IMG/VR virus record: IMGVR_UViG_3300044620_001243
Reading direction: 5' to 3' (one strand)
Length of the DNA: 64,000 nucleotides
Origin: a virus
Below are positions 3,354 to 63,047 of the stretch, piece by piece (the stretch's first letter is position 1; each line of letters begins with the position of its first letter). Under the pieces are notes generated by a model that did not search any database, was not told the DNA's origin, and worked only from the letters and a program-made list of their open reading frames with translations. Made by a program: the position numbers and the translations under genes.

Positions 3354-3734
3354 TTGTTTTTGAATAATATGAGTAGAATATTCTTAATCGATATTGATGG
3401 TACCATTTGTGATGATATCAGTAATGAAAATAGTCACCTTTATCCAAATGCAAAACCTATGGTTGGTGCTCAAAACATCATCAATAAATGGTACGATGAA
3501 GGAAATATCATTACTTTCTTTACCGCTCGTGAATCCAAAGACAGGACAATCACCGAAAATTGGTTAGATACACACGGATTCAAATATCATGGTTTGATTA
3601 TGGATAAACCGCGTATTCAAGATGGTCAAGAATACGTGTGGATTGATAATAGAAAAGTTAGAGCCATAACTTATCTTGGTACTTGGTCTGAGTTAACAGA
3701 AGTAGACGCTAAAATTCAAATGTTTAAAAAATGA
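3354..3734 (+). CDS. HAD-superfamily phosphatase
   Basis: The N-terminal LIDIDGTICDD sequence is the DxDGT motif I of HAD hydrolases. 126 aa. Confidence 0.55.
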   Translation: MFLNNMSRIFLIDIDGTICDDISNENSHLYPNAKPMVGAQNIINKWYDEGNIITFFTARESKDRTITENWLDTHGFKYHGLIMDKPRIQDGQEYVWIDNRKVRAITYLGTWSELTEVDAKIQMFKK

Positions 3735-3919
3735 ATATACGTTTAATAACAAAAATGAAAGAGATACAGACTTTTTATAGAGAAATAGGAAGTTTTTGTT
3801 ACGAATTGTATACGTTGATGTACGCATTCGCATTAAAAGAAAATATACCTTACGGCTTAGATATTCATCTGAAACTCATGGATGTAGTAGAAGAAGAATA
3901 TGCGGGAATTTGATTTTTT

Positions 3920-4567
3920 TTGAATTTTTGTTATATTTGTATTAAACCGAAAATTATTAAAAAAGTTATGAACAACGAGATGAATAACAAAGGAGGAAAA
4001 ACAATTATTATTGATGATGCTAAAGCATTTTTCGAACATCTATCATTTTGGCATAACAAATCAGATGATGAGTGTATTGAATTAGCAACAAATGAATATG
4101 GTTTAGACGCCGAACAAGCATTGAGGAACATGTTCGAAAGAGATTTTGTTACTGGTATGAATAATAATTTAATTGAAGAACTTAAAAATTTAAGAGACAA
4201 TGAGGATGAAGAAAGATACAATCGGATTATTGATGATGCTTATAAGAATTTCAAGAATAATTTCCCGATGAAAAAATCTAACCCACCGAAAGACTATATT
4301 AATAGTAAAGGACAATTACTAACAAAAGAAGAATTCATCAACAAATGTAAAACCGATACAGAATTCTCCCAAAGGTGGGGATTGAAGATTGAACAACGAG
4401 AGTTGAGTTTGGAAGAAAGAGCAAAATGGTTACAAGATAATAAAGGATACGACTTATTGGTTGGTAATTTAGACCACGACCATATAAGAGAAGTTGTTGA
4501 AGAAGAAGCACCAACCAAACTAATCACAATAACATATAACGATAAAACAATAGAAAGCTATGAGTAA
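3920..4567 (+). CDS. hypothetical protein (junction-motif family; contains thyA-derived segment)
   Basis: 215-aa ORF. Its C-terminus TKLITITYNDKTIESYE is shared with downstream ORFs. An internal EEFINKCKTDTEFSQRWG...RELSLEER segment resembles two separated segments of the thyA at 6871. Confidence 0.45.
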   Translation: MNFCYICIKPKIIKKVMNNEMNNKGGKTIIIDDAKAFFEHLSFWHNKSDDECIELATNEYGLDAEQALRNMFERDFVTGMNNNLIEELKNLRDNEDEERYNRIIDDAYKNFKNNFPMKKSNPPKDYINSKGQLLTKEEFINKCKTDTEFSQRWGLKIEQRELSLEERAKWLQDNKGYDLLVGNLDHDHIREVVEEEAPTKLITITYNDKTIESYE

Positions 4568-4868
4568 AGAAATTAGCCCTGTTATTATAGTAGCAGTAGA
4601 TTTAATGAAACGTGTTAATGAGGGTTTGGAAGTGGAATTCATAGGTGAAATGAAAAGAACAGAACCATCGGAATACTATCCAATTGGTCAGTTGGGGATT
4701 TCCACTAAAATGACCTTGTTAGGTCTTGAAGAAAATGTTTTTTTAGGAGCACAACAATGTGAAGACATGATAAACCCTCTCGGACATCTCTTAGCTGAGG
4801 ATTTAGTGATGACAGTTTTTAGAGACAAGCTAAAAGTATTATTTGAGCAGATAAGCCAAAATAATTGA
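4560..4868 (+). CDS. hypothetical protein
   Basis: 102-aa ORF whose start overlaps the upstream stop (ATGAGTAAA). Confidence 0.35.
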   Translation: MSKEISPVIIVAVDLMKRVNEGLEVEFIGEMKRTEPSEYYPIGQLGISTKMTLLGLEENVFLGAQQCEDMINPLGHLLAEDLVMTVFRDKLKVLFEQISQNN

Positions 4869-5311
4869 AAATTATGAATAAAGAACAACAAGAATTATTG
4901 GATGATGTTTATGAGACATACACAAATTATCCATTAGCAACAATACAAGACCATCATACAAACATACTTTATCAAAATTTATACAAAGGTTGGTGTATTC
5001 TCATTGGTCTTTCTATCGTATCCCCGCACCCAACTAGACATCTAACAAAAGAAGAATTCATCAACAAATGTAAAACCGATACAGAATTCTCTGAAAGGTG
5101 GGGATTAAAAATTGAAGAACGAGAGTTGAGTTTGGAAGAGAGGAGTATTATAGCAAAATCAAACCACTATGAAGTATCTCAGAACATAAAGAGGTCTGTT
5201 CGTGTTGATGAAGACCGCACATTACATAAAAATTTGGATGAAATTAACATCCCAACAAAACTAATCACAATAACATACAACGATAAAACAATAGAAAGTT
5301 ATGAAAGTTAA
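4865..5311 (+). CDS. hypothetical protein (paralog of 3920..4567)
   Basis: Shares the EEFINKCKTDTEFSERWGLKIEERELSLEER segment and the C-terminal TKLITITYNDKTIESYE with 3920..4567. Confidence 0.45.
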   Translation: MKIMNKEQQELLDDVYETYTNYPLATIQDHHTNILYQNLYKGWCILIGLSIVSPHPTRHLTKEEFINKCKTDTEFSERWGLKIEERELSLEERSIIAKSNHYEVSQNIKRSVRVDEDRTLHKNLDEINIPTKLITITYNDKTIESYES

Positions 5312-5591
5312 AATTAATGAAAAATGGTTTGAGGGTAGATATGATGATGAAAGAAAATTTATTATACCTCTATCTGAAGAACAAGATGTGATTTTTTTTT
5401 ATAAATGGCAAAAAAAATGTAATCTTGGATTGAATGGACAAATACCTAAATCAGATTATGTGAAAGATGTTGAATATAAAAGAATTTGCGAGTCTGGTAT
5501 TTTAAATAATTGTTACCCAACACTAAACCTAAATGAAGATGCGGTATGGTTAAAATTTGATAGTTATAAAACAATAGAAAGTTATGAATAA
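5301..5591 (+). CDS. hypothetical protein (junction-motif family)
   Basis: 96 aa, ending in KTIESYE, with an overlapping start and stop. Confidence 0.4.
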   Translation: MKVKINEKWFEGRYDDERKFIIPLSEEQDVIFFYKWQKKCNLGLNGQIPKSDYVKDVEYKRICESGILNNCYPTLNLNEDAVWLKFDSYKTIESYE

Positions 5592-5862
5592 AGAAATCAA
5601 AAAAGGAAATCTGAATTACGACGGGTCAGGTAGAGCATACCCTGATAATCCACAAATAAAAGAAAATTGGGATTGTATTTGGGAAAATAATGGTAAACAT
5701 TATATGCTAGTTGGTAGTGATGAACACAAGAAGTGGGAAATTTACTTGGGTGAAATGATTAATGTTTGGATTGAACGTCGTGGGTATCTTGATTTTGATA
5801 CTGATGAACAGGAGATTATTGATTTTTACAATAAGACACAACAAAACAATAGAAAGTTATGA
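5584..5862 (+). CDS. hypothetical protein (junction-motif family)
   Basis: 92 aa. The 3' end carries the same AAAACAATAGAAAGTTATGAA junction. Confidence 0.4.
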   Translation: MNKEIKKGNLNYDGSGRAYPDNPQIKENWDCIWENNGKHYMLVGSDEHKKWEIYLGEMINVWIERRGYLDFDTDEQEIIDFYNKTQQNNRKL

Positions 5863-6434
5863 AAGGAATATTAACAAGGAATGAAGATGGTATTTGGATG
5901 GTAAAATGGTCTGATTTACATTCATTCGGTCACGGAACGCATTGGTCTTATACAGAACTATCTAATGATAGTAATTCAATCAAGTACATTAAAGATGGTG
6001 AAATTAAATATAACGTACTTAAAGAAGGTTTGGAAGTTGATTTCGAAATTATAACATCAGGATACGATAGGGTAAACTTTACACCAAATAATTCAGCTAA
6101 ACTTATATTCCCAGAAGTTGATATTTTTGAAAAAGAAGGTTATATTAAAGAGTATGTTAAAGAAGGTGGTGACCTATGGTCAATATACAATATATCAACT
6201 ATTAGGGATGGTGGTACAATTATGTTAATAAGACCACCACAAAGTAAATTAAACCCAATTTATATTCATAAAGATTATTGGACATTACATGATGGTTATC
6301 CAACAACGGATGAAAATCTAATAACTAATACAAATGAACAATATTACATAATAGATAGGTTACAAAAATATAAAAGAGATTGTGAATTTAATTTACGACA
6401 AATTAAAGATATTATAGAAAAAATAAAGCTATGA
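5859..6434 (+). CDS. hypothetical protein
   Basis: 191-aa ORF coupled to its neighbours by overlapping ATGA. Confidence 0.4.
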   Translation: MKGILTRNEDGIWMVKWSDLHSFGHGTHWSYTELSNDSNSIKYIKDGEIKYNVLKEGLEVDFEIITSGYDRVNFTPNNSAKLIFPEVDIFEKEGYIKEYVKEGGDLWSIYNISTIRDGGTIMLIRPPQSKLNPIYIHKDYWTLHDGYPTTDENLITNTNEQYYIIDRLQKYKRDCEFNLRQIKDIIEKIKL

Positions 6435-6868
6435 ATAAAGAAATAATAAAAAATAAATTTGGTGATGAATCCGTGTGGAATCAACCAGAATTAAATGAAG
6501 GATTTGATAAATTTATTAAGGAAAAAACATCTCCCATAGGTGAGGGAAATGACCCGTGGAACTACAATATTCCATTAAATGAATTAAACATTAATATAAC
6601 AAAAGTAGAAGGACCTACATTTGAATACAATGGACGAGCATTCATTTGTCAAATTAGAAAAGCACCTCTGTTAAGAATCCATAATTTAGATGAAAACTTT
6701 TCAAATCTTACAGATAACTCTAGAATAAAAAAAGAGTTGGAGGATTTTATAAATGATAACTTCACCCATATCTACCAAGTTTTTGAGGAGAGATTATTGT
6801 CCTTTGTTGGTGATAATAGAGTGATGAACGAAATCAAATATGTCGTTAGAGGAACTAAAATAATTTAA
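6431..6868 (+). CDS. hypothetical protein
   Basis: 145-aa ORF. Confidence 0.4.
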   Translation: MNKEIIKNKFGDESVWNQPELNEGFDKFIKEKTSPIGEGNDPWNYNIPLNELNINITKVEGPTFEYNGRAFICQIRKAPLLRIHNLDENFSNLTDNSRIKKELEDFINDNFTHIYQVFEERLLSFVGDNRVMNEIKYVVRGTKII

Positions 6869-6870
6869 TT

Positions 6871-8016
6871 ATGAACAATTTAGATAAAAAATACATAGCA
6901 CTCCTACAAGACATACTTGATAATGGAGTAGAAAAGAAAGACAGGACAGGTACGGGGACTCTATCAGTATTCGGTAGACAAATCCGTCATTCTATGAAAG
7001 ATGGTTTCCCACTATTAACTACAAAGAAGATGTATTTCAAAGGAATTGTAACTGAATTGTTATGGTTCTTGCGTGGCGACACAAACATCAAATTCCTTGT
7101 TGATAATGATTGTCATATTTGGGATGGGGACGCATACAAAAACTATACCAAAAAAATGACATACCACCCAGAAGAAAATTGGTTAGATGATGGAATAGGT
7201 GGGAAAACTTATCGTCAACTCACACAAGAAGAATTCATTAACAAAATCAAGACAGATGATGAGTTTGCTAAGAAGTGGGGGTCGCTCGGGCCCGTGTATG
7301 GTAAGCAATGGAGAAGTTGGAGTAAATTAGAACTTACTGAGGTTGGTAAAGAATTATCTGAAATTTGGGATGGTAGAACACATACTAAACTTGATTTTCC
7401 GATAGACCAAATCGCAAACCTAATCAACGACCTTAAAACAAACCCAGACTCAAGACGATTGATGGTTAGTGCTTGGAATGTTGGAGAATTAGACCAAATG
7501 GTTCTTCCTCCTTGTCACTACAGCTTTCAAGTTTATACAAGAGAGTTGAGTTTACTAGAAAGATATGAACTGATGAAAAAATTAGATAATTGGGTGTCGG
7601 TTCACTACAAAGAGCCTAAGACAATGGAGTATATGGATAAACATAATATCCCAACCAGAGCAATCTCATTAATGTATAACGCCAGAAGCCAGGACGTACC
7701 ATTAGGAACGCCCTTCAACATAGCCTCCTATGCACTACTCTTGGAAATAATTGCAAAGATGGTTAATATGGTTCCTGATGAATTGATTACTAATATGGGG
7801 GATTGTCATATCTACCTCAATCAAATTGAAGGTATTAAAGAACAATTGACAAGAGAACCTTACACACTGCCAAAATTATTGGGAAAGGATGAATATTATT
7901 ACTTAATGGATTTGGATATTCCTTTCTCTGAAAAAATTGATGCATTCAAACCCGATTTTTGGAAATTGGAAAACTACCAATCTCACCCAGCAATTAAATT
8001 ACCATTATCAAATTAA
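6871..8016 (+). CDS. thyA: thymidylate synthase (ThyA, phage td-like with insertions)
   Basis: Carries DRTGTGT, LGPVYGKQWRSW, NPDSRRLMVSAWNVGELD, the catalytic PCH and LGTPFNIASYALL. It is 381 aa because of a T4-td-like insert (…DDEFAKKWGSLG). Confidence 0.85.
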   Translation: MNNLDKKYIALLQDILDNGVEKKDRTGTGTLSVFGRQIRHSMKDGFPLLTTKKMYFKGIVTELLWFLRGDTNIKFLVDNDCHIWDGDAYKNYTKKMTYHPEENWLDDGIGGKTYRQLTQEEFINKIKTDDEFAKKWGSLGPVYGKQWRSWSKLELTEVGKELSEIWDGRTHTKLDFPIDQIANLINDLKTNPDSRRLMVSAWNVGELDQMVLPPCHYSFQVYTRELSLLERYELMKKLDNWVSVHYKEPKTMEYMDKHNIPTRAISLMYNARSQDVPLGTPFNIASYALLLEIIAKMVNMVPDELITNMGDCHIYLNQIEGIKEQLTREPYTLPKLLGKDEYYYLMDLDIPFSEKIDAFKPDFWKLENYQSHPAIKLPLSN

Positions 8017-44627: not shown

Positions 44628-44653
44628 GTATTCTGAATATGAAAATAAACAAT

Positions 44654-44727
44654 AGCGGGGTGGTGGCAGATGGTAGCCCGCCAGGCTCATAACCTGGAGG
44701 TCGTAGGTTCGAGTCCTACCCCCGCAA
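44654..44727 (+). tRNA. tRNA-Met (CAT); 1:72 A:A mismatch, could be an initiator or a tRNA-Ile2-type
   Basis: Anticodon stem CCAGG/CCTGG with loop CTCATAA. T-arm GTAGG-TTCGAGT-CCTAC. Acceptor AGCGGGG/CCCCGCA. Promoter box TATATTTG at 44620. Confidence 0.8.
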
Positions 44728-44791
44728 CCGTATAGTTTTTGTTCTTTGACATCTTGGGAATTAAAAGTAAAAGTCGAGAGACTTAAAAATT

Positions 44792-44901
44792 AGTCAGGTG
44801 GCGGAATTGGTAGACGCAAGTGAGAATAGTAATTGCGCTGATGTAGCGGCAGATGCAGTAAGTTATTATTCATACAGGTTCGAGTCCTGTCCTGACTACC
44901 A
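44792..44901 (+). tRNA. tRNA-like unit 1 (Leu-type scaffold, 56-nt variable core, CCA encoded)
   Basis: 5' AGTCAGGTGGCGGAATTGGTAGACGC … ACAGGTTCGAGTCCTGTCCTGACTACCA 3'. Acceptor strands are complementary. No canonical anticodon arm was found. Confidence 0.5.
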
Positions 44902-44992
44902 AAGAAACAAGTAAAACGCAAACGCACAGTCCCTTGATGCATCAGGTGAGGCGCACACTGTATACTGGATGACCTCTGTTTCTTTTTTAATC
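44902..44992 (+). repeat. 91-nt spacer, identical copy at 45370-45460
   Basis: Exact duplicate following the two CCA-encoding units 1 and 3. It contains an AGAAACA…TGTTTCT helix followed by a T-run (terminator-like). Confidence 0.7.
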
Positions 44993-45101
44993 AGTCAGGT
45001 GGCGGAATTGGATAGACGCATTGAGGAATCTAAACTTGGTAGCATTTGTTAGATTTAATAGTAATCCTCCTTCCTTACAGGTTCGACTCCTGTCCTGACT
45101 A
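44993..45101 (+). tRNA. tRNA-like unit 2 (variable core 57 nt)
   Basis: Same conserved flanks. The core has a GAGGA…TCCTC stem enclosing 37 nt. Confidence 0.5.
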
Positions 45102-45267
45102 CGACAGTTAGCAGATAATACTTGGTAGTTCTTGTAACGTCTGACTATGCGTGAGGTGGTTTTATAACTTTCCACCAGCTGGTCCAAAACTAAAAGTTAA
45201 TACAGGTTTAATAACGGGGTGAAGGAAAGTCTAACTAACAAGTACTTCACTACCTACTGTAAAAATT

Positions 45268-45369
45268 AGTCAGGTGACGAAATTGGTAGACGTGCCACGA
45301 ATAAAACTAAGTGGTGGAGAAACAGCTTTCAGGCACTCCATACAGGTTCGAGTCCTGTCCTGACTACCA
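45268..45369 (+). tRNA. tRNA-like unit 3 (CCA encoded; compensatory D-stem A10:T25)
   Basis: D-stem ACG/CGT versus GCG/CGC in the other units. Followed by the same 91-nt spacer as unit 1. Confidence 0.5.
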
Positions 45370-45460
45370 AAGAAACAAGTAAAACGCAAACGCACAGTCC
45401 CTTGATGCATCAGGTGAGGCGCACACTGTATACTGGATGACCTCTGTTTCTTTTTTAATC

Positions 45461-45558
45461 AGTCAGGTGGCGGAATGGTAGACGCACTGGACAGGCGATG
45501 CATTTAAAACAGAAATAAGCCCAGTCGGTACTTACAGGTTCGAATCCTGTCCTGACTA
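45461..45558 (+). tRNA. tRNA-like unit 4
   Basis: Conserved flanks. The core has an ACTGG…CCAGT stem with a 30-nt loop. Confidence 0.5.
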
Positions 45559-45926
45559 CAAATCTTAGGAGTAATTAACCTAAGACTGAGAGGTTCGAAA
45601 CTCTCGATTGGCTATGGTGTAATGGGCACAGAGAAACGGAGTACGAAAGGGGTTACGGGAATTTTCCCGCAAACATCAGAAACGGGACTCAGGATTATGG
45701 TTCGAATCCATATTAGTCAACAAGCCGTCTTTTTTTCTTGTCCGCCGTGGACGTGGATTGTTGAGACGTAAAAGTAACAATCGATTGATTAGAGAACGGT
45801 AGGATACAGGTTCACTAGACGAAGGTAGAAGTTTTTTTTTGATAGATGGGTTTGAGTTCTTTATAACAACAAACCAACTATAATTCAGTAGGGACAAATG
45901 GGAGCGGCTTACTCCAGTCCCGAAAT

Positions 45927-46085
45927 AGTCAGGTGGCGGAATTGGTAGACGCTATGAAATCATGTTTTAAGATTGAACGGGTAGGCAGACGTAACATATA
46001 GGTAAAAGAGTGTTATCGCCGAATACACTTATAAGGGTCCTATGAAAAAACTTCAATCATACAGGTTCAAGTCCTGTCCTGACTA
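45927..46085 (+). tRNA. tRNA-like unit 5 (110-nt core)
   Basis: Conserved flanks with T-arm ACAGGTTCAAGTCCTGT. The very long core suggests an insertion or intron. Confidence 0.45.
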
Positions 46086-46328
46086 CACGTTCCGAAACAG
46101 ACAACGGATAGTTCCACTATGAACGATGAGAAACAGGGTGATGTCCTGTATTAGTTATCGCCTCCCGAATGCGGTCGGGATAGGTTGACCACCTAAACAT
46201 CAGCAATGTGAACGGTCTATTTCTAACTCACCTACGTTTGTAAGACAACATAGAAGTGACGAGACGGGAAACTCGTCGTGAGGACATCCAAGACACCTGT
46301 AAGTTGGATAAATTAGGGTGTTATTTTT

Positions 46329-46451
46329 AGTCAGGTGTGGGTAAAAATGCGCTAACTGGAAACCCACTGAAAGCGAAAGCAAAGTCGAGGTCTAAATGCG
46401 CACTATGGCCGAGGTAATGGCGAGATACAGGTTCAAGTCCTGTCCTGACTA
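46329..46451 (+). tRNA. tRNA-like unit 6 (altered D region)
   Basis: Acceptor AGTCAGG/CCTGACT and T-arm conserved. The D region is replaced by TGGG…CCCA. Confidence 0.4.
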
Positions 46452-46596
46452 CAAAGACAATGGTTTTCCCCATTCAACGGATGTCGACAATCCAGAATGG
46501 AATCGGAATTCAGCACCCTCAGCCGAGGCGCCTCGTAAAACTACGATTAAGCTGTTAAGATTGGAGCGAGACGGGTACTCCATCATTGTCTTATTT

Positions 46597-46668
46597 GGTC
46601 GGTTCATCTAGAGGTTAGGATACAAGATTTTCATTCTTGTCACATGGGTTCGATTCCCATACCGACTA
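46597..46668 (+). tRNA. tRNA-Glu (TTC)
   Basis: Clean cloverleaf. Acceptor GGTCGGT/ACCGACT, D GGAT-loop-ATCT, anticodon stem CAAGA/TCTTG with loop TTTTCAT, T-arm ATGGG-TTCGATT-CCCAT. 72 nt. Confidence 0.8.
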
Positions 46669-46833
46669 CCTTGGAGGTATAGGGGTAAACCCTTGAGGCG
46701 AAGTACAAGCCATAGTCACTGAACTTAAACTGACCTCCAACCAAATTAGAAGTGTCGCAATACGCGTTTCAATCTAATTGATAGACGTATCAATGAAGAT
46801 GTTCGAGGGTGAAAATCCCAAGCTTCTAATCCT

Positions 46834-46938
46834 CCATTCTTAGTGTTATGTGGTTAAAACACGTTAACTCTTACATCGCCTGATTAGCGCTAATCCGAAT
46901 GTAAGACGAGTAAGTTGGTTCGAATCCAACAGAATGGA
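46834..46938 (+). tRNA. tRNA-like gene with distinct acceptor (CCATTCT/AGAATGG), canonical D and T arms, and a 26-nt insertion inside a TCTTAC/GTAAGA helix (possible intron-containing tRNA)
   Basis: D-arm GTGT-loop-ACAC and T-arm GTTGG-TTCGAAT-CCAAC. The core is too long for a type I tRNA and the anticodon is unresolved. Confidence 0.45.
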
Positions 46939-47216
46939 CAATGAGTAAGAGATACTCAGAGTCTTTGGTCTAAGACTTAAACAATAGACTCGCAGAATGT
47001 CTACGGCGTGAGTGGGACATCATGGGAACAAAGAAGAGTCACACACCTTCTCCCAGTAGTGTTGACAGGTTTTTATGTGGTAAGACACTAATGAAAAAGA
47101 CTCGTTCTATGGGGTACTTATCTGGAGTATCAAACAAGTGTGAGTGATATGGTTCTCGAACAGACAGAGAAACCCGTTAAAATCTACCCGTCTGGAATCT
47201 CAGGATGGGGAAACAT

Positions 47217-47319
47217 AGTCAGGTGGCGGAGTGGGCTAACGCTAACTTGGAAGAGTCTGAGGAGTGGTAACCAAGTACCTATACTCTGATGACCGCAGGT
47301 TCGAATCCTGTCCTGACTA
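47217..47319 (+). tRNA. tRNA-like unit 7
   Basis: Conserved flanks (D-loop variant AGTGGGCTAA, T-stem GCAGG). The core has a CTTGG…CCAAG stem. Confidence 0.45.
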
Positions 47320-47337
47320 CAAAAATAAATTAAAATT

Positions 47338-47598
47338 ATGTTTATAGAAAGATTTTTTAACCCCTATGTGTCATCTCACGAAAGGGTATTATATGAGAAT
47401 AAAGAAGCAATTGAACATTGTTTGAAATATCATACATGGATTAGACATTATTCATTTGAAGGTGATGAATATATCAAAAATGTTAATGGTAAATTAGTTT
47501 GGAATGATGGTAGTAAAGTTGATAAAAGAAAATTACCTAAAAAAGGAAAAGGATGGGGCAGATATTCAAGTGAACTTTATAATTTGTGTTCTTTTTAA
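47338..47598 (+). CDS. small hypothetical protein embedded in tRNA island
   Basis: 86-aa ORF that exactly fills the gap between units 7 and 8. Confidence 0.35.
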   Translation: MFIERFFNPYVSSHERVLYENKEAIEHCLKYHTWIRHYSFEGDEYIKNVNGKLVWNDGSKVDKRKLPKKGKGWGRYSSELYNLCSF

Positions 47599-47605
47599 AT
47601 TAAAT

Positions 47606-47751
47606 AGTCAGGTGGCGGAATTGGTTAGACGCTGTAAAAGTAAGATATGGGAATTGTGCACTCGGTAAACCTACGCACAAGGCTTAGATAGTTGTGCAAC
47701 AGCGGAAAGTCTTACAAAACTATCTTACAGGTTCGAATCCTGTCCTGACTG
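47606..47751 (+). tRNA. tRNA-like unit 8 (95-nt core closed by 8-bp GTAAGATA/TATCTTAC helix; discriminator G)
   Basis: Conserved flanks. The self-contained closing helix suggests an inserted element or intron. Confidence 0.45.
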
Positions 47752-47906
47752 CAAAATTAAAGATATGTTTAGAACATTAAATTATATTTGGAAATTGTTT
47801 TGGAAAAGACCTAGTAGAAGAGTATTTTTTATATTTTTTAGAATGCTAAAAACGGAAATTAAGTGTTTAATGTTGACTGGATACTCAACAGATGAATTAC
47901 TAAATT

Positions 47907-48033
47907 AGTCAGGTGGCGGAATTGGTAGACGCACGATTTATTGTTTAACGATGTGGCTCAATGTCCTAATGGATGAGAGAAAATAAACAGAGAAATATAC
48001 CACATACAGGTTCGAATCCTGTCCTGACTACCA
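47907..48033 (+). tRNA. tRNA-like unit 9 (CCA encoded)
   Basis: Conserved flanks with a 73-nt core. Confidence 0.45.
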
Positions 48034-48085
48034 AGTTAACCCACTAAGACTAGAAACGGGTGACACCTCGGAAAGACGAGGACAT

Positions 48086-48170
48086 AGTCAGGTGGCGGAA
48101 TGGATAGACGCGGCCCTATCAGGGGTAGAGGCGAAAGAAACTCATACAGGTTCGAATCCTGTCCTGACTA
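48086..48170 (+). tRNA. tRNA-like unit 10 (85 nt, type-II length)
   Basis: Conserved flanks. The 34-nt core forms CCCT-ATC-AGGG and GAG…CTC minihairpins but no 7-nt anticodon loop. Confidence 0.45.
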
Positions 48171-48278
48171 CACAGTGTTGGCTTCAAGGACCTATTAGGG
48201 AAGTACACTTAAATAAAACAAGAACGGGGAAAACACCGAATCTGCAGATAACGGCGAAGTACCAACGAAAGGTGAAAC

Positions 48279-48352
48279 GACCTCATAGCTTAATTGGTAA
48301 AGCACCTGGCTTTTAACCAGGGGAGTCCAGAGTTCGAGTCTCGGTGGGGTCA
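48279..48352 (+). tRNA. tRNA-Lys (TTT)
   Basis: Acceptor GACCTCA/TGGGGTC, D GCTT-AATTGGTA-AAGC, anticodon stem CCTGG/CCAGG with loop CTTTTAA, T-loop TTCGAGT. Confidence 0.85.
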
Positions 48353-48553
48353 CAAAGGTTGATTGGGGAATGATGGTGACAAAGACTTGAGAGTTTATGC
48401 CGGTCGTTACCATCGGAGTTGGGAGGTATAAACCTAAGCAATGCCAATCGTAAAAGGAGTTGTCCACTCGACCATCTTCTCCTTTCCTTTTTTTTAAAAA
48501 AATTCTTAAAGACACATTTTGGTTTTATCATTTTACTTTTGTATATTTTACAT

Positions 48554-53524: not shown

Positions 53525-54256
53525 ATGGATAAAGATAAATTAAAAAATATCATTACCAGAATTGGTCAAATAAATCCAAAATATGAATTGGAAAATATTC
53601 TGCCTCAATCGCCAAAATTAATTAAATTAATGCCTAAATTAATTCAACTCATGGGTGACCCATTAGAAGATGCTCAATTGGCTGCAGTTAAAAAAGATGG
53701 TTTAACAATCGAATATATCGTTAAAGGTGGAATCACCCCATCAGAAGATGTTCAATTGGCTGCAGTTAACGAAAATGGTTATGCAATCCAATATATCATT
53801 AATGGTGGAATCGTCCCATCAGAAGGTGTTCAATTGGCTGCAGTTAACAAAAAGGGTTATGCAATCTCAAATATCATTAAAGGTGGAATCGTCCCATCAG
53901 AAGATGTTCAATTGGCCGCAGTTAACGAAGAGGGTTATGCAATAGGATATATCATTGATGGTGGAATCGTCCCATCAGAAGGTGTTCAATTGGCCGCAGT
54001 TAATAATAATGGTTATGCAATCCAACATATCATTAATGGTGGAATCGTTCCATCAGAAGGTGTTCAATTGGCCGCAGTTAACAAAAAGGGTTTATCAATC
54101 GAATATATCATTGATGCCGGAATCATTCCATCAGAAGATGTTCAATTTGGAGCAGTTAATTATAATGGTTTATCAATCCAATATATCATTGATGCTGGAA
54201 TCACCCCATCAGAACGTGTAAAAGAACTTGCTCGTTCCAAGGGTGTTCAAATATAA
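53525..54256 (+). CDS. DUF4116-like repeat protein (paralog 1 of 3)
   Basis: N-terminus MDKDKLKNIITRIGQINPKYELENI, then about eight 24-aa repeats (GI(T/V)PSEDVQLAAVNxNGYAIQYII). C-terminus SERVKELARSKGV. Confidence 0.5.
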   Translation: MDKDKLKNIITRIGQINPKYELENILPQSPKLIKLMPKLIQLMGDPLEDAQLAAVKKDGLTIEYIVKGGITPSEDVQLAAVNENGYAIQYIINGGIVPSEGVQLAAVNKKGYAISNIIKGGIVPSEDVQLAAVNEEGYAIGYIIDGGIVPSEGVQLAAVNNNGYAIQHIINGGIVPSEGVQLAAVNKKGLSIEYIIDAGIIPSEDVQFGAVNYNGLSIQYIIDAGITPSERVKELARSKGVQI

Positions 54257-54261
54257 ATAAC

Positions 54262-54897
54262 ATGGATAAAGATAAATTAAAAAATATCATTACCAGAATT
54301 GGTCAAATAAATCCAAAATATGAATTGGAAAATATTCTGCCCCAATCACCAAAATTAATTCAATTCATGGATAATCCATCAGAAGATGTTCAATTGGCCG
54401 CAGTTAAAAAAGATGGTTTAACAATCTATTATATCATTGAAGCCGGAATCGTCCCATCTGAAGATGTTCAATTGGCTGCAGTTAATAATAATGGTTCATC
54501 AATCTATCAAATCATATATGATGCTGGAATCACCCCATCAGAAGATGTTCAATTGGTTGCAGTTAAAAAAGTGGGCGACTTAATCTATGATATCATTAAA
54601 GTCGGAATAACCCCATCAGAAGATGTTCAATTGGCTGCGGTTAATAATAATGGTTCATCAATAGGATATATCATTAACGGTGGAATCACCCCATCAGAAG
54701 ATGTTCAATTGGCCGCTGCTAATCAAAATGGTAGGGTAATCCAATATATCATTAAAGCTGGAATCACCCCATCAGAAGATGTTCAATTGGCCGCAGTTAA
54801 TAATAATGGTTATGCAATCCAACATATCATTAACGCCCGAATCACCCCATCAGAACGTGTAAAAGAACTTGCTCGTTCCAAGGGTGTTAATATATAA
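54262..54897 (+). CDS. DUF4116-like repeat protein (paralog 2)
   Basis: The first 100 or so nt are nearly identical to paralog 1. Same repeat and C-terminal block. Confidence 0.5.
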   Translation: MDKDKLKNIITRIGQINPKYELENILPQSPKLIQFMDNPSEDVQLAAVKKDGLTIYYIIEAGIVPSEDVQLAAVNNNGSSIYQIIYDAGITPSEDVQLVAVKKVGDLIYDIIKVGITPSEDVQLAAVNNNGSSIGYIINGGITPSEDVQLAAANQNGRVIQYIIKAGITPSEDVQLAAVNNNGYAIQHIINARITPSERVKELARSKGVNI

Positions 54898-54902
54898 GTT
54901 AT

Positions 54903-55616
54903 ATGGATAAAGATAAATTAAAAAATATCATTACCAGAATTGGTCAAATAAATCCAAAATATGAATTGGAAAATATTGTGCAGCAAGCGCCACAATTAAT
55001 TCAATTCATGGATAATCCATCTGAAGAAATTCAATTGGCCGCGGTTGAAAAAGATGGTAAATATATAAAAAATATTATTGAAAGTGGAATCAAACCATCA
55101 GAAGATGTTCAATGGACAGCTGTTAATCAAGGTGGTCAGTCACTTTATTTTATCCTTGAAGCCGGAATCGTCCCATCTGAAGATGTTCAGTTGGCAGCGG
55201 TTAGAAGTAGAGGTTCGGCAATCCAATTTATCATTGAAGCTGGAATCATTCCATCAGAAGATGTTCAATGGTTTGCGGTTAACGAAAATGGTTATGTAAT
55301 CCAAGATATCATTGATGCCGGAATCACCCCATCAGAACGTGTTCAATTGGCCACAGTTAATTATAATGGTTTGTTAATCAAATATATCATTGATGTCGGA
55401 ATCACCCCATCAGAACGTGTTCAATTGGCTGCTGTTAATCAAAATGGTTTGTCAATCAAAGATATCATTGAAGCCGGAATCGTCCCATCTGAAGATGTTC
55501 AGTTGACTGCAGTTAGAAGTAGAGGTTCGGCAATCCAATTTATCATTTATAATGGTGGAATCAAACCATCAGAACGTGTAAAAGAACTTGCTCGTTCCAA
55601 GGGTATTAATATATAA
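54903..55616 (+). CDS. DUF4116-like repeat protein (paralog 3)
   Basis: Same N- and C-terminal blocks, with the repeats more diverged. Confidence 0.5.
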   Translation: MDKDKLKNIITRIGQINPKYELENIVQQAPQLIQFMDNPSEEIQLAAVEKDGKYIKNIIESGIKPSEDVQWTAVNQGGQSLYFILEAGIVPSEDVQLAAVRSRGSAIQFIIEAGIIPSEDVQWFAVNENGYVIQDIIDAGITPSERVQLATVNYNGLLIKYIIDVGITPSERVQLAAVNQNGLSIKDIIEAGIVPSEDVQLTAVRSRGSAIQFIIYNGGIKPSERVKELARSKGINI

Positions 55617-55621
55617 ATAAC

Positions 55622-56194
55622 ATGGAAAAAAATCTAAATGAAGAGATTTCAAGAATAAAATCAATAATCAATTTTATGAATGAAAATGAATTGCCCAAAA
55701 ATTCTGGAGACTTAATAAGGATGTTACCTGAAAAGTTAAAAGAATTATTTTTCAATCAATGGAAAGCAAAACAAAACCCAAAATGGCACCCCGAAGGTAA
55801 CACATTGAAACATATTCTTGTTGTAATTAAAAGGGCTTATCATTATTATCCTGATGACCCCAATATGATTATGGCGGCGTTGTTTCATGATTTGGGGAAA
55901 ATTGATACATACAACATTAACCCAAAAACGGGGGAACCAACTGCGTATGGTCATGAGAACAAGTCAGTGCAATATGTGGAAGAATTCAAAGATTGGATTC
56001 AGAGTTTTGAGGGAACGAACGTGGAAGAGATTAAATATTTGGTTAAAAACCATATGAAGGTAAAACCATCCACATGGGACTCAATGAGGGATATTAAGAA
56101 AGAACCGATACAATCACACCCCGCATTTGATAAATTAATGGGTTTTACAAGTAAATTGGATGGTGGGGGGATTAATTTGGAAAAAAATATTTAA
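55622..56194 (+). CDS. HD-domain phosphohydrolase (CCA-enzyme C-terminal-domain-like 2',3'-cyclic phosphodiesterase)
   Basis: KWHPEGNTLKH…LFHDLGK matches the KWHPE…H…HDxGK pattern of the bacterial CCA-adding enzyme HD domain. Confidence 0.5.
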   Translation: MEKNLNEEISRIKSIINFMNENELPKNSGDLIRMLPEKLKELFFNQWKAKQNPKWHPEGNTLKHILVVIKRAYHYYPDDPNMIMAALFHDLGKIDTYNINPKTGEPTAYGHENKSVQYVEEFKDWIQSFEGTNVEEIKYLVKNHMKVKPSTWDSMRDIKKEPIQSHPAFDKLMGFTSKLDGGGINLEKNI

Positions 56195-61222: not shown

Positions 61223-61412
61223 TCGAATCCTGACTGCAAATCAAATCAACTAAAAACAAAACAAATGAAAAATAAGTTAAAAACAATTTGGCATGATTTT
61301 TGGACTGACCCCCTATACTACATTGTAATTATGTCGTATATTGGTTTGCTTTTAATTATGTTAATAGTTAGTGTGGCTTGGTTTATCCAACCTTTAATAA
61401 AATAACAAAACA

Positions 61413-61501
61413 GTCAGGTGGTGGAATTGGTTAGACCGTCCCCTCCCTTAAGTGGAAGGGGGAGACCGAAAGGTATACAGGTTCGAATCCTGTCCTGACT
61501 A
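61413..61501 (+). tRNA. tRNA-like unit a (89 nt; D-stem shifted with compensatory changes)
   Basis: GGTGG/CCGT D-arm variant. The core folds best as a CTCCCTT/AAGGGGG helix with an AAGTGG loop rather than as an anticodon arm. An alternative reading as tRNA-Leu (CUUAAGU loop) would need a mismatch. Confidence 0.45.
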
Positions 61502-61685
61502 CTAAAAATTAAAGAATTATGAAAATAAAAGTACACTTATTAAGTCAATCTAAACCGATTGAATATGAGGATGTGAAAAACGCATACACAAAAAGCGGTT
61601 TGTATTGTGTCTATCTAAAAAACAATCAAGTACACAAATACCCTTTGTGTAATGTATTTAGAATTGAAGAAGATTATTAAAACAT

Positions 61686-61768
61686 AGTCAGGTGGCGAAA
61701 TTGGATAGACGCTAGGGAAACCTTCCCGAGAATGAAAGTTCATATAGGTTCGAGTCCTGTCCTGACAA
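61686..61768 (+). tRNA. tRNA-like unit b (83 nt; A1:A72 mismatch)
   Basis: 3' acceptor CCTGACA. The core has a GGGAA-ACC-TTCCC minihairpin. Confidence 0.4.
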
Positions 61769-61784
61769 CTAAAAATTAAAGAAT

Positions 61785-61967
61785 ATGGAATGGGTTGAAA
61801 TTAAAAATGGAAAACCAAAAGATGGTAGTTGGGTACTAATTCAAAGTTCTTTGAAGAACGTACCGAAATATGAGGTTTGCTATTATGAAAATGATGAATG
61901 GTACATACCTTCGTATAATGATGTATGTGAAGAGAAACATATTATTAAATGGTCGTACATTGAATAA
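61785..61967 (+). CDS. small hypothetical protein
   Basis: 60 aa, lying between units b and c. Confidence 0.35.
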   Translation: MEWVEIKNGKPKDGSWVLIQSSLKNVPKYEVCYYENDEWYIPSYNDVCEEKHIIKWSYIE

Positions 61968-61973
61968 TCAAAC

Positions 61974-62096
61974 AGTCAGGTGGCGGAATTGGTAGACGTA
62001 TAGAGTAGGGAGTAGCACTCCATTTATGGTAAGGCAAGCAAATAAGACCTAACCCTCTAAGGTAGCACCATACAGGTTCGAATCCTGTCCTGACTA
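61974..62096 (+). tRNA. tRNA-like unit c (123 nt)
   Basis: Conserved flanks (D 3' strand CGT). The core contains GGAGT-AGC-ACTCC. Confidence 0.4.
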
Positions 62097-62115
62097 CAAA
62101 CAAACAAAAAAAAAT

Positions 62116-62322
62116 ATGAGTCAATTTATCAACACAAATCACGCAAACGAAGCGGCAAGAGAAGCCTTTCAGGGTTATAGGAAAGACACAGAAAGAATCA
62201 AACAAATCAGACAGATGTTACAGAATGGTGAATCTGTTAGCAATGAAGATATTCTTTGGTTGTGTCAAAGAGCTCAATCAGGCATACTACAAGAAGAATC
62301 AAGTTGGTATGACCACGGATAA
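62116..62322 (+). CDS. small hypothetical protein
   Basis: 68 aa, after an AAACAAACAAAAAAAAATATG leader. Confidence 0.35.
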   Translation: MSQFINTNHANEAAREAFQGYRKDTERIKQIRQMLQNGESVSNEDILWLCQRAQSGILQEESSWYDHG

Positions 62323-62328
62323 AAATAT

Positions 62329-62435
62329 AGTCAGGTGGCGGAATTGGTAGACGCAATAAGGCATGGAAACATGCGCATCATGACGGATTGGTGATATTAG
62401 CCAAAGTTATACAGGTTCGAATCCTGTCCTGACTA
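62329..62435 (+). tRNA. tRNA-like unit d (107 nt)
   Basis: Conserved flanks. The core contains GCATG-GAAAC-ATGC. Confidence 0.4.
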
Positions 62436-62454
62436 CAATAAAAAAACAAAACAA

Positions 62455-62943
62455 ATGAAACTAAATCAAAACTCACTCTCGGCAAAACTCTATCGTTGGT
62501 TCTATAAAACCGACACAATGCCAACCAACCTATGTCCTTACTTTTGGAAACTGGTCACTGCGGTGATTCTTTCACCTTTGCTTGCAATTCACACCCTACC
62601 CTATGAAATCATCAACTACAAACGTCAGCGTTGGGATACATACAGTGATATGCTCGGAATATCGCTTGTTTGTTGGTGCCTTATCGCTGTTGTTATTTGC
62701 ATGATTTCATCATTGGGTCTTTTCTTTTACATCCCTGATAAGGGTTCATCACTTTGGACAATGATGTCAATCGGTCTTATTTGTTGGGGTACCCTTATCC
62801 TAGTTGGCATTACTTGGGCTATTACTAAAACAGTAGTATACTTAAAATCAAAGAAGAGTGATAATGAAAAGACAGACAACATCATCGTTGAAATGGTGAA
62901 AGCAAAGTATCACAAATACTGCCCTAAAATTGATTGGAAGTAA
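62455..62943 (+). CDS. small integral membrane protein
   Basis: 162 aa with 3-4 TM segments. Leader AAAAACAAAACAAATG. Confidence 0.4.
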   Translation: MKLNQNSLSAKLYRWFYKTDTMPTNLCPYFWKLVTAVILSPLLAIHTLPYEIINYKRQRWDTYSDMLGISLVCWCLIAVVICMISSLGLFFYIPDKGSSLWTMMSIGLICWGTLILVGITWAITKTVVYLKSKKSDNEKTDNIIVEMVKAKYHKYCPKIDWK

Positions 62944-62950
62944 AACAAAT

Positions 62951-63028
62951 AGTCAGGTGGCGGAATGGTAACGCAGCTCGCGGTGTACACAAAGGGGTGA
63001 ATTGCAGGTTCGAATCCTGTCCTGACTA
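62951..63028 (+). tRNA. tRNA-like unit e (78 nt)
   Basis: Conserved flanks (D-loop AATGGTAA, T-stem GCAGG) with a 29-nt core. Confidence 0.4.
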
Positions 63029-63047
63029 CAATAAAAAAACAAAACAA

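Follow-up and report, generated by a model that had tools for sequence, protein, structure and literature searches.

The junction repeat of a small-gene array upstream of thyA

The stretch of DNA analysed here (the window) is 64,000 nucleotides long and comes from a virus, IMG/VR virus record IMGVR_UViG_3300044620_001243. Directly 5' of its thyA gene, seven small open reading frames (ORFs) form an array on the + strand (3968-6868), and successive members of this array meet at copies of a 21-nt sequence, AAAACAATAGAAAGTTATGAA, hereafter the junction motif. Three copies are exact and two are diverged (Table 1), which makes five 21-mer matches in the window where dinucleotide shuffles give an expectation of 0.02. 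A 32-nt repeat family, ATAAAACAATAGAAAGYTATGARTAAAGAAAT, contributes a further, degenerate relative at the last junction. Every copy falls on consecutive gene junctions of the array, and the motif is a real, non-random feature. Its core, AAAG[CT]TATGA, occurs 6 times in the 64 kb, each time at the starts of consecutive genes between 3962 and 6425; being confined to the array, it marks the motif as local and not as a genome-wide start context. The latter explanation was rejected on this ground, the other genes using poly-A leaders with A at -3.

A preliminary description of this DNA had already recognised the repeat, with coordinates that were off by 0-3 nt and without the copy at 4858-4878. 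It had also assigned the same peptide end, KTIESYE followed by a stop, to the ORF upstream of each copy. At 5285 that end is KTIESYES, and at 5843 the claim does not hold, since ORF 5584-5862 runs through the motif in another frame (..QNNRKL) and takes its stop from the TGA of ATGA. Nor do the ends in TITYNDKTIESYE belong to otherwise dissimilar proteins, as had been proposed: just two ORFs, 3968-4567 and 4874-5311, carry them, and their products are 59% identical over ~97 C-terminal residues. The protein encoded by 5301-5591 has KTIESYE alone in common with these two.

Adjoining ORFs of the array overlap by 4-11 nt or lie at most 6 nt apart, the motif being inside coding sequence. The first ORF results from a fusion, its fusion point near 4205-4215 corresponding to a former ATGAATAA stop-start overlap. 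In two related loci, L078 and L066 (L numbers designate related loci throughout), the two halves are separate genes joined by the ATGAATAA overlap; the site reads GATGAAGAAAGATAC in the window and ATGAATAACGAAAGATAC in L066. The C-terminal half of the fused ORF is a module of a protein family that we call family 0, with its variable segment at ~4421-4510. Searches of Pfam and PHROGs with the seven array ORFs gave no above-threshold match (four marginal ones were far below), megablast found no match to 3900-6900 in cultured or deposited phages, and Rfam gave one sub-threshold chance match, on the opposite strand.

Table 1. Features of the array and its surroundings in the window (positions 3910-8016).
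Feature	Position	Strand	Remarks
Promoter-like site, TTGATT-16-TATATT with TG	3910-3937	+	In the only sizeable intergenic gap, 5' of the first array gene
AAAGTTATGAA, 3' core of the motif	3962-3972	+	Start of the first array gene (ATG 3968); without attached upstream ORF
ORF, 199 aa	3968-4567	+	In-frame fusion of two cassettes; ends TITYNDKTIESYE, stop
Junction copy AAAACAATAGAAAGCTATGAG, 2 mismatches	4544-4564	+	Upstream end KTIESYE, stop; next ATG 4560
Cassette ORF, 102 aa	4560-4868	+	No match in Pfam or PHROGs
Diverged junction copy AAAATAATTGAAAATTATGAA, 3 mismatches	4858-4878	+	Upstream TGA 4866-4868; next ATG 4874
Family-0 ORF, 145 aa	4874-5311	+	Conserved N-terminal region, hypervariable at ~5144-5248, tail IPTKLITITYNDKTIESYES, stop
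Exact junction copy	5285-5305	+	Next ATG 5301
Cassette ORF, 96 aa, MKVKINEKWF...FDSYKTIESYE, stop	5301-5591	+	Other neighbours in L029, L049 and L066
Exact junction copy	5568-5588	+	Next ATG 5584
Cassette ORF, 92 aa	5584-5862	+	Next motif copy read in frame 3
Exact junction copy with ATGA stop-start overlap	5843-5863	+	Next ATG 5859
Cassette ORF, 191 aa, MKGILTRNEDG...	5859-6434	+	Preceded elsewhere by different cassettes, nearly always via the motif
Degenerate junction relative TATAGAAAAAATAAAGCTATGAATAAAGAAAT	6413-6444	+	Next ATG 6431
Last array cassette ORF, 145 aa	6431-6868	+	
thyA, 381 aa	6871-8016	+	Downstream anchor of the array; lineage-specific hypervariable insert at residues 228-267 (nt 7552-7671)

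Beyond the window, an exact-match scan located 99 copies of the 21-mer in 76 stretches of IMG/VR, with at most 6 exact copies in any stretch, and a single occurrence in 596 Gb of bacterial and archaeal genomes. When up to 3 mismatches are allowed, arrays reach 9-10 junction copies within 3-4 kb (L011, L029, L052), always gene-directed, head-to-tail copies being spaced by 200-900 bp. Among 80 loci chosen by their ThyA gene, independently of the motif, 10 hold copies with at most 2 mismatches. Differences between copies cluster at motif positions 1, 5, 9/10 and 21 and do not follow third-codon positions, the core AATAGAAAGTTATGA being nearly invariant. No description of the motif was found in the literature searched.

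The carriers are a group of large uncultured phages. Their nearest cultured relative by ThyA is the Flavobacterium phage vB_FspM_immuto (54.5% identity); because of this match and of the A-rich leaders devoid of Shine-Dalgarno sequences, the host is probably a member of the Bacteroidota, of the Flavobacteriia type or Flavobacterium-like. Other ThyA-anchored lineages repeat start contexts of their own before otherwise unrelated genes: AAACCAAAACAAAGATGAGT is found four times in L137 (6604-7877) and AAATTTAAAAAGAGAGATATGA four times in L133 (13134-16341), and L131 (202-2515) offers a further case. Junction repeats particular to each lineage may be typical of these phages in general.

Unrelated flanks and mapped crossovers

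The ATG of the motif opens a downstream ORF in all 102 exact copies. The upstream ORF reads the motif in frame 1, ending KTIESYE and a stop, at 82 of them, in frame 2 with the internal TAG at 16 and in frame 3 with the TGA of ATGA at 4. Unique near-copies (166) are distributed among the three frames as 118/36/12, and 135 of the 166 provide stops in all three. The stops are supplied by a TAG at motif positions 8-10, a TGA at 18-20 and, usually, a TAA directly after ATGAA, with a stop-to-AUG distance of 0-8 nt in every frame. Any importance of the shared peptide end is made less likely by this use of all three frames and by motif variation without codon periodicity. The idea of KTIESYE as a functional C-terminal peptide tag loses ground on the same observations, three-frame use and the lack of wobble-type variation.

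Clustering of the flanks of 141 unique junctions (at most 2 mismatches) sorted the left flanks into 52 families and the right flanks into 76, which are combined in 113 ways. For 8461 of the 9870 junction pairs the motif is the sole common sequence, and similarity on both sides was found in 28. Where pairs are similar in the right flank only, mean pairwise identity drops from ~90% to background at motif position 1; where they are similar in the left flank only, identity drops just past position 21. These comparisons show the 21-mer, with its core ATAGAAAGTTATGA, to be the only sequence common to dozens of unrelated upstream ends and downstream starts. The remnant of a recent tandem duplication, with continuous similarity reaching far into both flanks at every junction, had been put forward as the finding that would speak against a dedicated element. 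Given how few pairs are similar on both sides and how sharply identity ends at the motif edges, this scenario fails. A local duplication scar was likewise rejected, in view of the ~52 unrelated upstream ends, the ~76 unrelated downstream starts, the three frames and the similarity that stops at the edges.

One-sided similarity occurs at about half of the junctions, which carry the tail ..IPTKLITITYNDKTIESYE of family 0; PTKLITITYND stands upstream at 66 of the 141. Family 0 comprises 6461 clusters in a metagenomic protein database, all hypothetical and none with a Pfam domain, and tblastn gave one weak match only, to an uncultured megaphage, so that neither the family nor the array is known from cultured phages. 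Its members consist of a conserved N-terminal region of ~85 aa, a hypervariable segment of 25-50 aa and a conserved tail, and they often start with MNKEQQ, the common right flank of the motif. In an AlphaFold2 model (pLDDT 72) the final beta-strand is formed by KTIESYE, with KLITITY as its partner; a fold search of the PDB with this model gave no significant match.

Comparison of related phages for gain and loss of cassettes at the motif, the check proposed in the preliminary description, located indel crossovers within the junction repeat. The site of the array is constant in many phages, which share the order HAD-phosphatase gene and small ORF, array, thyA, and its cassette content differs. 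L063 and L078, which are 98.5% identical upstream and 99.8% identical downstream, are distinguished by two multi-cassette indels, L063 having two extra cassettes and L078 three, at another place in the array. At the three-cassette indel, the L063 junction agrees fully with the left junction of L078 as far as ..AATAAACAATAGAAAGTTATGAA and with its right junction from ATAGAAAGTTATGAAGGG.. on, which places the crossover within the 15-nt core ATAGAAAGTTATGAA. At the two-cassette indel the crossover maps 30-45 nt further upstream, in the conserved family-0 tail. Similarly, the window matches L031 at 97.8% identity over 3.8 kb upstream of the array and at 96% 3' of thyA, and within the array their alignment blocks end at 4562, 5828 and 6444, all of them junction copies. 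In L049, cassette 5301-5591 is joined directly to cassette 6431-6868. The near-identical contigs L156-L158 have identical gene order and show no recent events.

Junction repeats thus compared across near-identical genomes demonstrably act as substrates of recombination. The early suggestion of cassette shuffling is borne out: the same 21-mer is found between many left and right cassettes that are unrelated, homology does not continue past its edges, and near-identical phages differ by cassette indels. Since the crossover points vary and no integrase- or recombinase-like gene was seen near the arrays in the parts of the genomes that are visible (the flanks encode a glutamine-synthetase-like protein, a HAD phosphatase, ThyA and a GIY-YIG endonuclease), the exchange fits a homology-driven rather than a site-specific process.

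Possible translational restart at the junction and competing explanations

A scan for sigma-70-type promoters detected no hexamer pairs at the junctions (21 sites in the region, 27.1 expected), and neither terminator-like sites nor promoters are predicted on the + strand inside the array. The promoter-like site at 3910-3937 probably marks the start of a polycistronic unit; because it stands alone upstream, with no internal + strand promoter or terminator predicted, the array is likely transcribed as one polycistronic mRNA. The ~95 other genes of the window have plain A-rich leaders, these phage genes lacking Shine-Dalgarno sequences. The motif is purine-rich, non-palindromic and devoid of a stem-loop. 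It is predicted to be 0.65-0.75 unpaired, and its first 14 nt, at ~0.75, are more open than the other start regions of the window. It places A at -6, -11 and -13 to -16, the positions at which start sites of F. johnsoniae favour A and which were measured there as positive determinants (PMC6847099). Termination-reinitiation requires a stop and a start as close as those found here (PMC12548453), and the layout of the motif fits that of a translational restart site, which is compatible with the coupling suggested in the preliminary description. In addition, motif positions 9-14, AGAAAG (e.g., 5293-5298 in the window), are complementary to the last six nucleotides of the F. johnsoniae 16S rRNA, ACCUCCUUUCU-3' (oligonucleotide in PMC7797042). 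The significance of this pairing is doubtful and we give it no weight: only 2 nt separate the site from the AUG, and the 3' end of the rRNA is reported to be sequestered.

We consider it probable, with moderate confidence, that the motif is a portable stop-restart linker serving a hypervariable array of small accessory genes. Homologous recombination between copies adds, deletes, re-orders and occasionally fuses cassettes, and the motif would persist since any product of recombination stays expressible. Whichever frame the incoming gene uses, a stop would be provided with the next AUG 0-8 nt away, behind a leader that is A-rich, unstructured and free of a Shine-Dalgarno sequence, as used by Bacteroidia ribosomes, and termination-reinitiation would then proceed along a single polycistronic mRNA. 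Most simply, the junction would have arisen as the end and the start of a tandemly amplified family-0 gene, the codons of the last beta-strand (KTIESYE) and the gene start being the source of the motif, which other cassettes would have gained later by recombination.

Several points weigh against such a linker. The motif has G at -3, which is found in 7 of 66 other genes of the window; in an F. johnsoniae reporter A is favoured at this position and the A-3G change cost 70% (PMC6847099). An open, intrinsically sub-optimal start of this sort is also consistent with dependence on upstream translation, albeit in a suggestive way. When orthologous junctions were compared (8 motif pairs only), the motif was not separated from ordinary start regions, which likewise are more conserved than their flanks. 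Conservation could stem from repeated gene conversion and not from selection for function, and part of it is ordinary coding constraint on the family-0 tail, with its predicted beta-strand. Because loci L001-L076 were collected by means of the exact 21-mer, identity within the motif is inflated; the flank results are unaffected. Finally, the translational role is one that we infer from the arrangement of stops, starts and leader.

In the rival that survives best, the motif is a passive scar, namely the conserved 3' end and 5' start of the tandemly duplicated family 0, accidentally acquired elsewhere and without a role of its own in recombination or expression. The frequent PTKLITITYND upstream and, at many junctions, MNKEQQ downstream agree with it, as do the predicted pairing of KTIESYE with KLITITY and the ~250 nt of upstream similarity common to the copies at 4544 and 5285. 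Yet a scar of this kind must contend with 51 other left and 75 other right families, with the use of three frames in the absence of codon periodicity, with similarity that ends at the motif edges and with crossovers that map inside the repeats of near-identical phages. We regard it as unlikely.

Alternatively, the motif could be the operator of a regulon, bound by a phage RNA-binding translational repressor similar to RegA of T4 or by an endoribonuclease that controls all array genes together, recombination being secondary. The RegA site selected by SELEX, aaAAUUGUUAUGUAA, and the natural operators, which occur on many early mRNAs, are A/U-rich, unstructured and AUG-containing with a 5' poly(A) tract (PMC3014915); the motif, ..AGAAAGUUAUGAAUAA, has these traits together with the GUUAUG of the SELEX consensus and lies in a region predicted to be open. 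Its 16 upstream bases are conserved more tightly than a generic start needs, and repeated start contexts particular to other lineages would be expected under co-evolution with a trans-acting factor. Natural RegA operators, however, are degenerate and not exact repeats, and a phmmer search of the window and ~1.8 Mb of related loci, using an approximate T4 query on partial genomes, detected no protein resembling RegA. An operator appears decidedly unlikely.

Integrons also come to mind, since short cassettes, mostly promoterless and of like orientation, alternate with a repeated site and are probably read from a promoter at the upstream end, and many relatives carry a GIY-YIG/NUMOD1 gene between array and thyA. 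The motif might accordingly be an attC-like recombinase site or the target of that endonuclease. Unlike attC, it is non-palindromic, without inverted repeats and predicted to be unpaired, it overlaps both coding sequences, and its crossovers are variable in position (in the core or 30-45 nt upstream) with no integrase-like gene seen near the arrays in the visible parts of the genomes. Unlike what a homing target would show, the endonuclease-encoding L063 and L078 carry 5-7 motif copies themselves. A site-specific cassette system is very improbable on these grounds.

Least credible of all is a transcriptional cassette of the promoter-early stem-loop (PeSL) type, consisting of an early promoter and a terminator: the setting agrees, both being hyperplastic regions in which small relative-less genes show indels between repeats (PMC2839356), but it was ruled out because the array genes overlap and leave no intergenic space, the junctions have neither promoter hexamers nor stem-loops, promoter-like sites do not exceed expectation (21 against 27) and no internal + strand terminator is predicted.

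The ThyA insert, known linkers and implications

The array is linked to its downstream anchor by more than position. ThyA in this phage group contains an insert of 30-50 aa at the hairpin after FQVYT, and residues 228-267 of the window protein stand in for 3 residues of the thymidylate synthase of E. faecalis. In the ThyA genes of the window and of L003-L159 the insert is hypervariable, with 55 distinct versions, between the invariant flanks RELS.ER and IPTRAISLM, and the same insert can be found in ThyA proteins whose backbones share no more than 55-70% identity. Residues 115-137 and 219-273 of the window ThyA have their homologue in the C-terminal half of family 0, in agreement with the nucleotide repeats, and the conserved flanks of the thyA insert (7541-7563 and ~7655-7690) are also present in family-0 ORFs. 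ThyA inserts recur in family-0 proteins (P0013, P0018), and a family-0 ORF of L063 matches the thyA insert of L078 at 117 of 117 nt, in a tract bounded exactly by the conserved flanks. Family 0, the most frequent carrier of the motif, is partly derived from thyA and swaps a hypervariable insert with ThyA.

A free-standing homing endonuclease gene, GIY-YIG (SegE-like) with NUMOD1, separates array and thyA in many relatives (L078: 7268-8005, +) and is absent from the window, where the gap is 6868/6871. It is speculative that this endonuclease stimulates local recombination and gene conversion. Carried further, the array could be a gene-conversion archive analogous to antigenic variation, in which the linker keeps donor modules expressed, the GIY-YIG enzyme supplies double-strand breaks and the ThyA loop and its small mimics are diversified. 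The basis for this proposal is that the family-0 flanks RELSLEER and IPTKLIT, conserved in their nucleotides, also bracket the ThyA loop insert, that identical inserts recur in distant ThyA backbones, and that the 117-nt match links two phages that are ~99% identical; we hold it to be a long shot. If true, it would presumably be driven by a host defence that senses or binds the ThyA surface loop.

Other genes and repeats of the window deserve mention. Upstream of the array lie a glutamine-synthetase-like gene with Gln-synt N and C domains (1807-2958) and a gene for a small HAD-family phosphatase (3354-3734), probably auxiliary metabolic genes. Two regions, 44650-48360 and 61400-63030, hold fifteen copies of ACAGGTTCGAATCCTGTCCTGACTAC, which corresponds to a tRNA T-arm and 3' acceptor strand, each with a matching 5' GTCAGGT 75-156 nt upstream. 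ARAGORN predicts 6 tRNAs in the window, 3 of which coincide with ACAGGTTCGAATCCTGTCCTGACTAC copies, and the Rfam tRNA model gives 10 matches, several of them 98-124 nt long; the set resembles a family of tRNA-like genes whose acceptor and T arms are identical and whose long inserts vary. At 53525-56194, four tandem paralogous genes encode proteins of 190-243 aa, three of the four starting with ATGGATAAAGATAAA, and in front of each of genes 2-4 the 3' end of the gene before it is repeated almost identically, ..GCTCGTTCCAAGGGTGTT.AATATATAA..

Phage mosaicism raises an old open question, whether modules are exchanged by homologous recombination at short linkers or by random illegitimate joins filtered by selection. 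The modular theory of Susskind and Botstein reportedly saw short conserved sequences at gene borders of lambdoid phages as sites of homologous exchange. Those boundary sequences are few, weakly conserved and disputed, in contrast to the hundreds of junctions built here on one exact 21-mer, within which crossovers can be mapped. To our knowledge, nature offers few good examples of such linkers, chief among them the PeSLs of T4-type phages. A PeSL lies between genes and unites a promoter of the sigma-70 type with a Shine-Dalgarno sequence and a stem-loop that serves as terminator (Arbiol et al. 2010, PMC2839356; Comeau et al. 2014, PMC4122927). Excised mini-circles are a further trait of PeSLs. 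Like them, the junction motif is a short repeat in hyperplastic regions, 5' of small relative-less genes and spanning a stop and a start, and insertions, deletions and replacements that distinguish close phages are accounted for by recombination between its copies. Unlike them, it measures 21 nt (~32 with ATGAATAAAGAA), sits inside overlapping coding sequence and has neither a promoter nor a stem-loop nor a Shine-Dalgarno sequence; divergent phages keep it with far greater exactness, and it would act on translation.

Stop-start overlaps are used for translational coupling by termination-reinitiation (review PMC12548453). As in such overlaps, the stop and AUG of the junctions overlap or lie within a few nucleotides on the same strand, with a conserved sequence just 5' of the putative restart. 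Ordinary overlaps span 4-8 nt (ATGA, TAATG), with no conservation outside them; in the junctions conservation extends over 16 nt upstream, and a single sequence would serve all three frames. The TURBS elements of caliciviruses are another example of termination-reinitiation. We see the motif as a probable stop-restart linker, embedded in coding sequence and indifferent to reading frame, through which modules are shuffled; its part in recombination is evident from the comparison of phages, and its part in translation is suggested by its layout.

With hundreds of junctions on a single 21-mer, mappable crossovers and abundant environmental phages, the linker hypothesis of mosaicism becomes directly testable. 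A linker that is translational rather than transcriptional would suit hosts whose initiation is not based on Shine-Dalgarno sequences, and it offers a natural model for building polycistronic cassettes of the plug-and-play kind that work in any frame. The array also draws attention to a protein family that is very large (~6,500 clusters) yet lacks annotation, and to a hypervariable insert, so far unexplained, in an enzyme that is essential.

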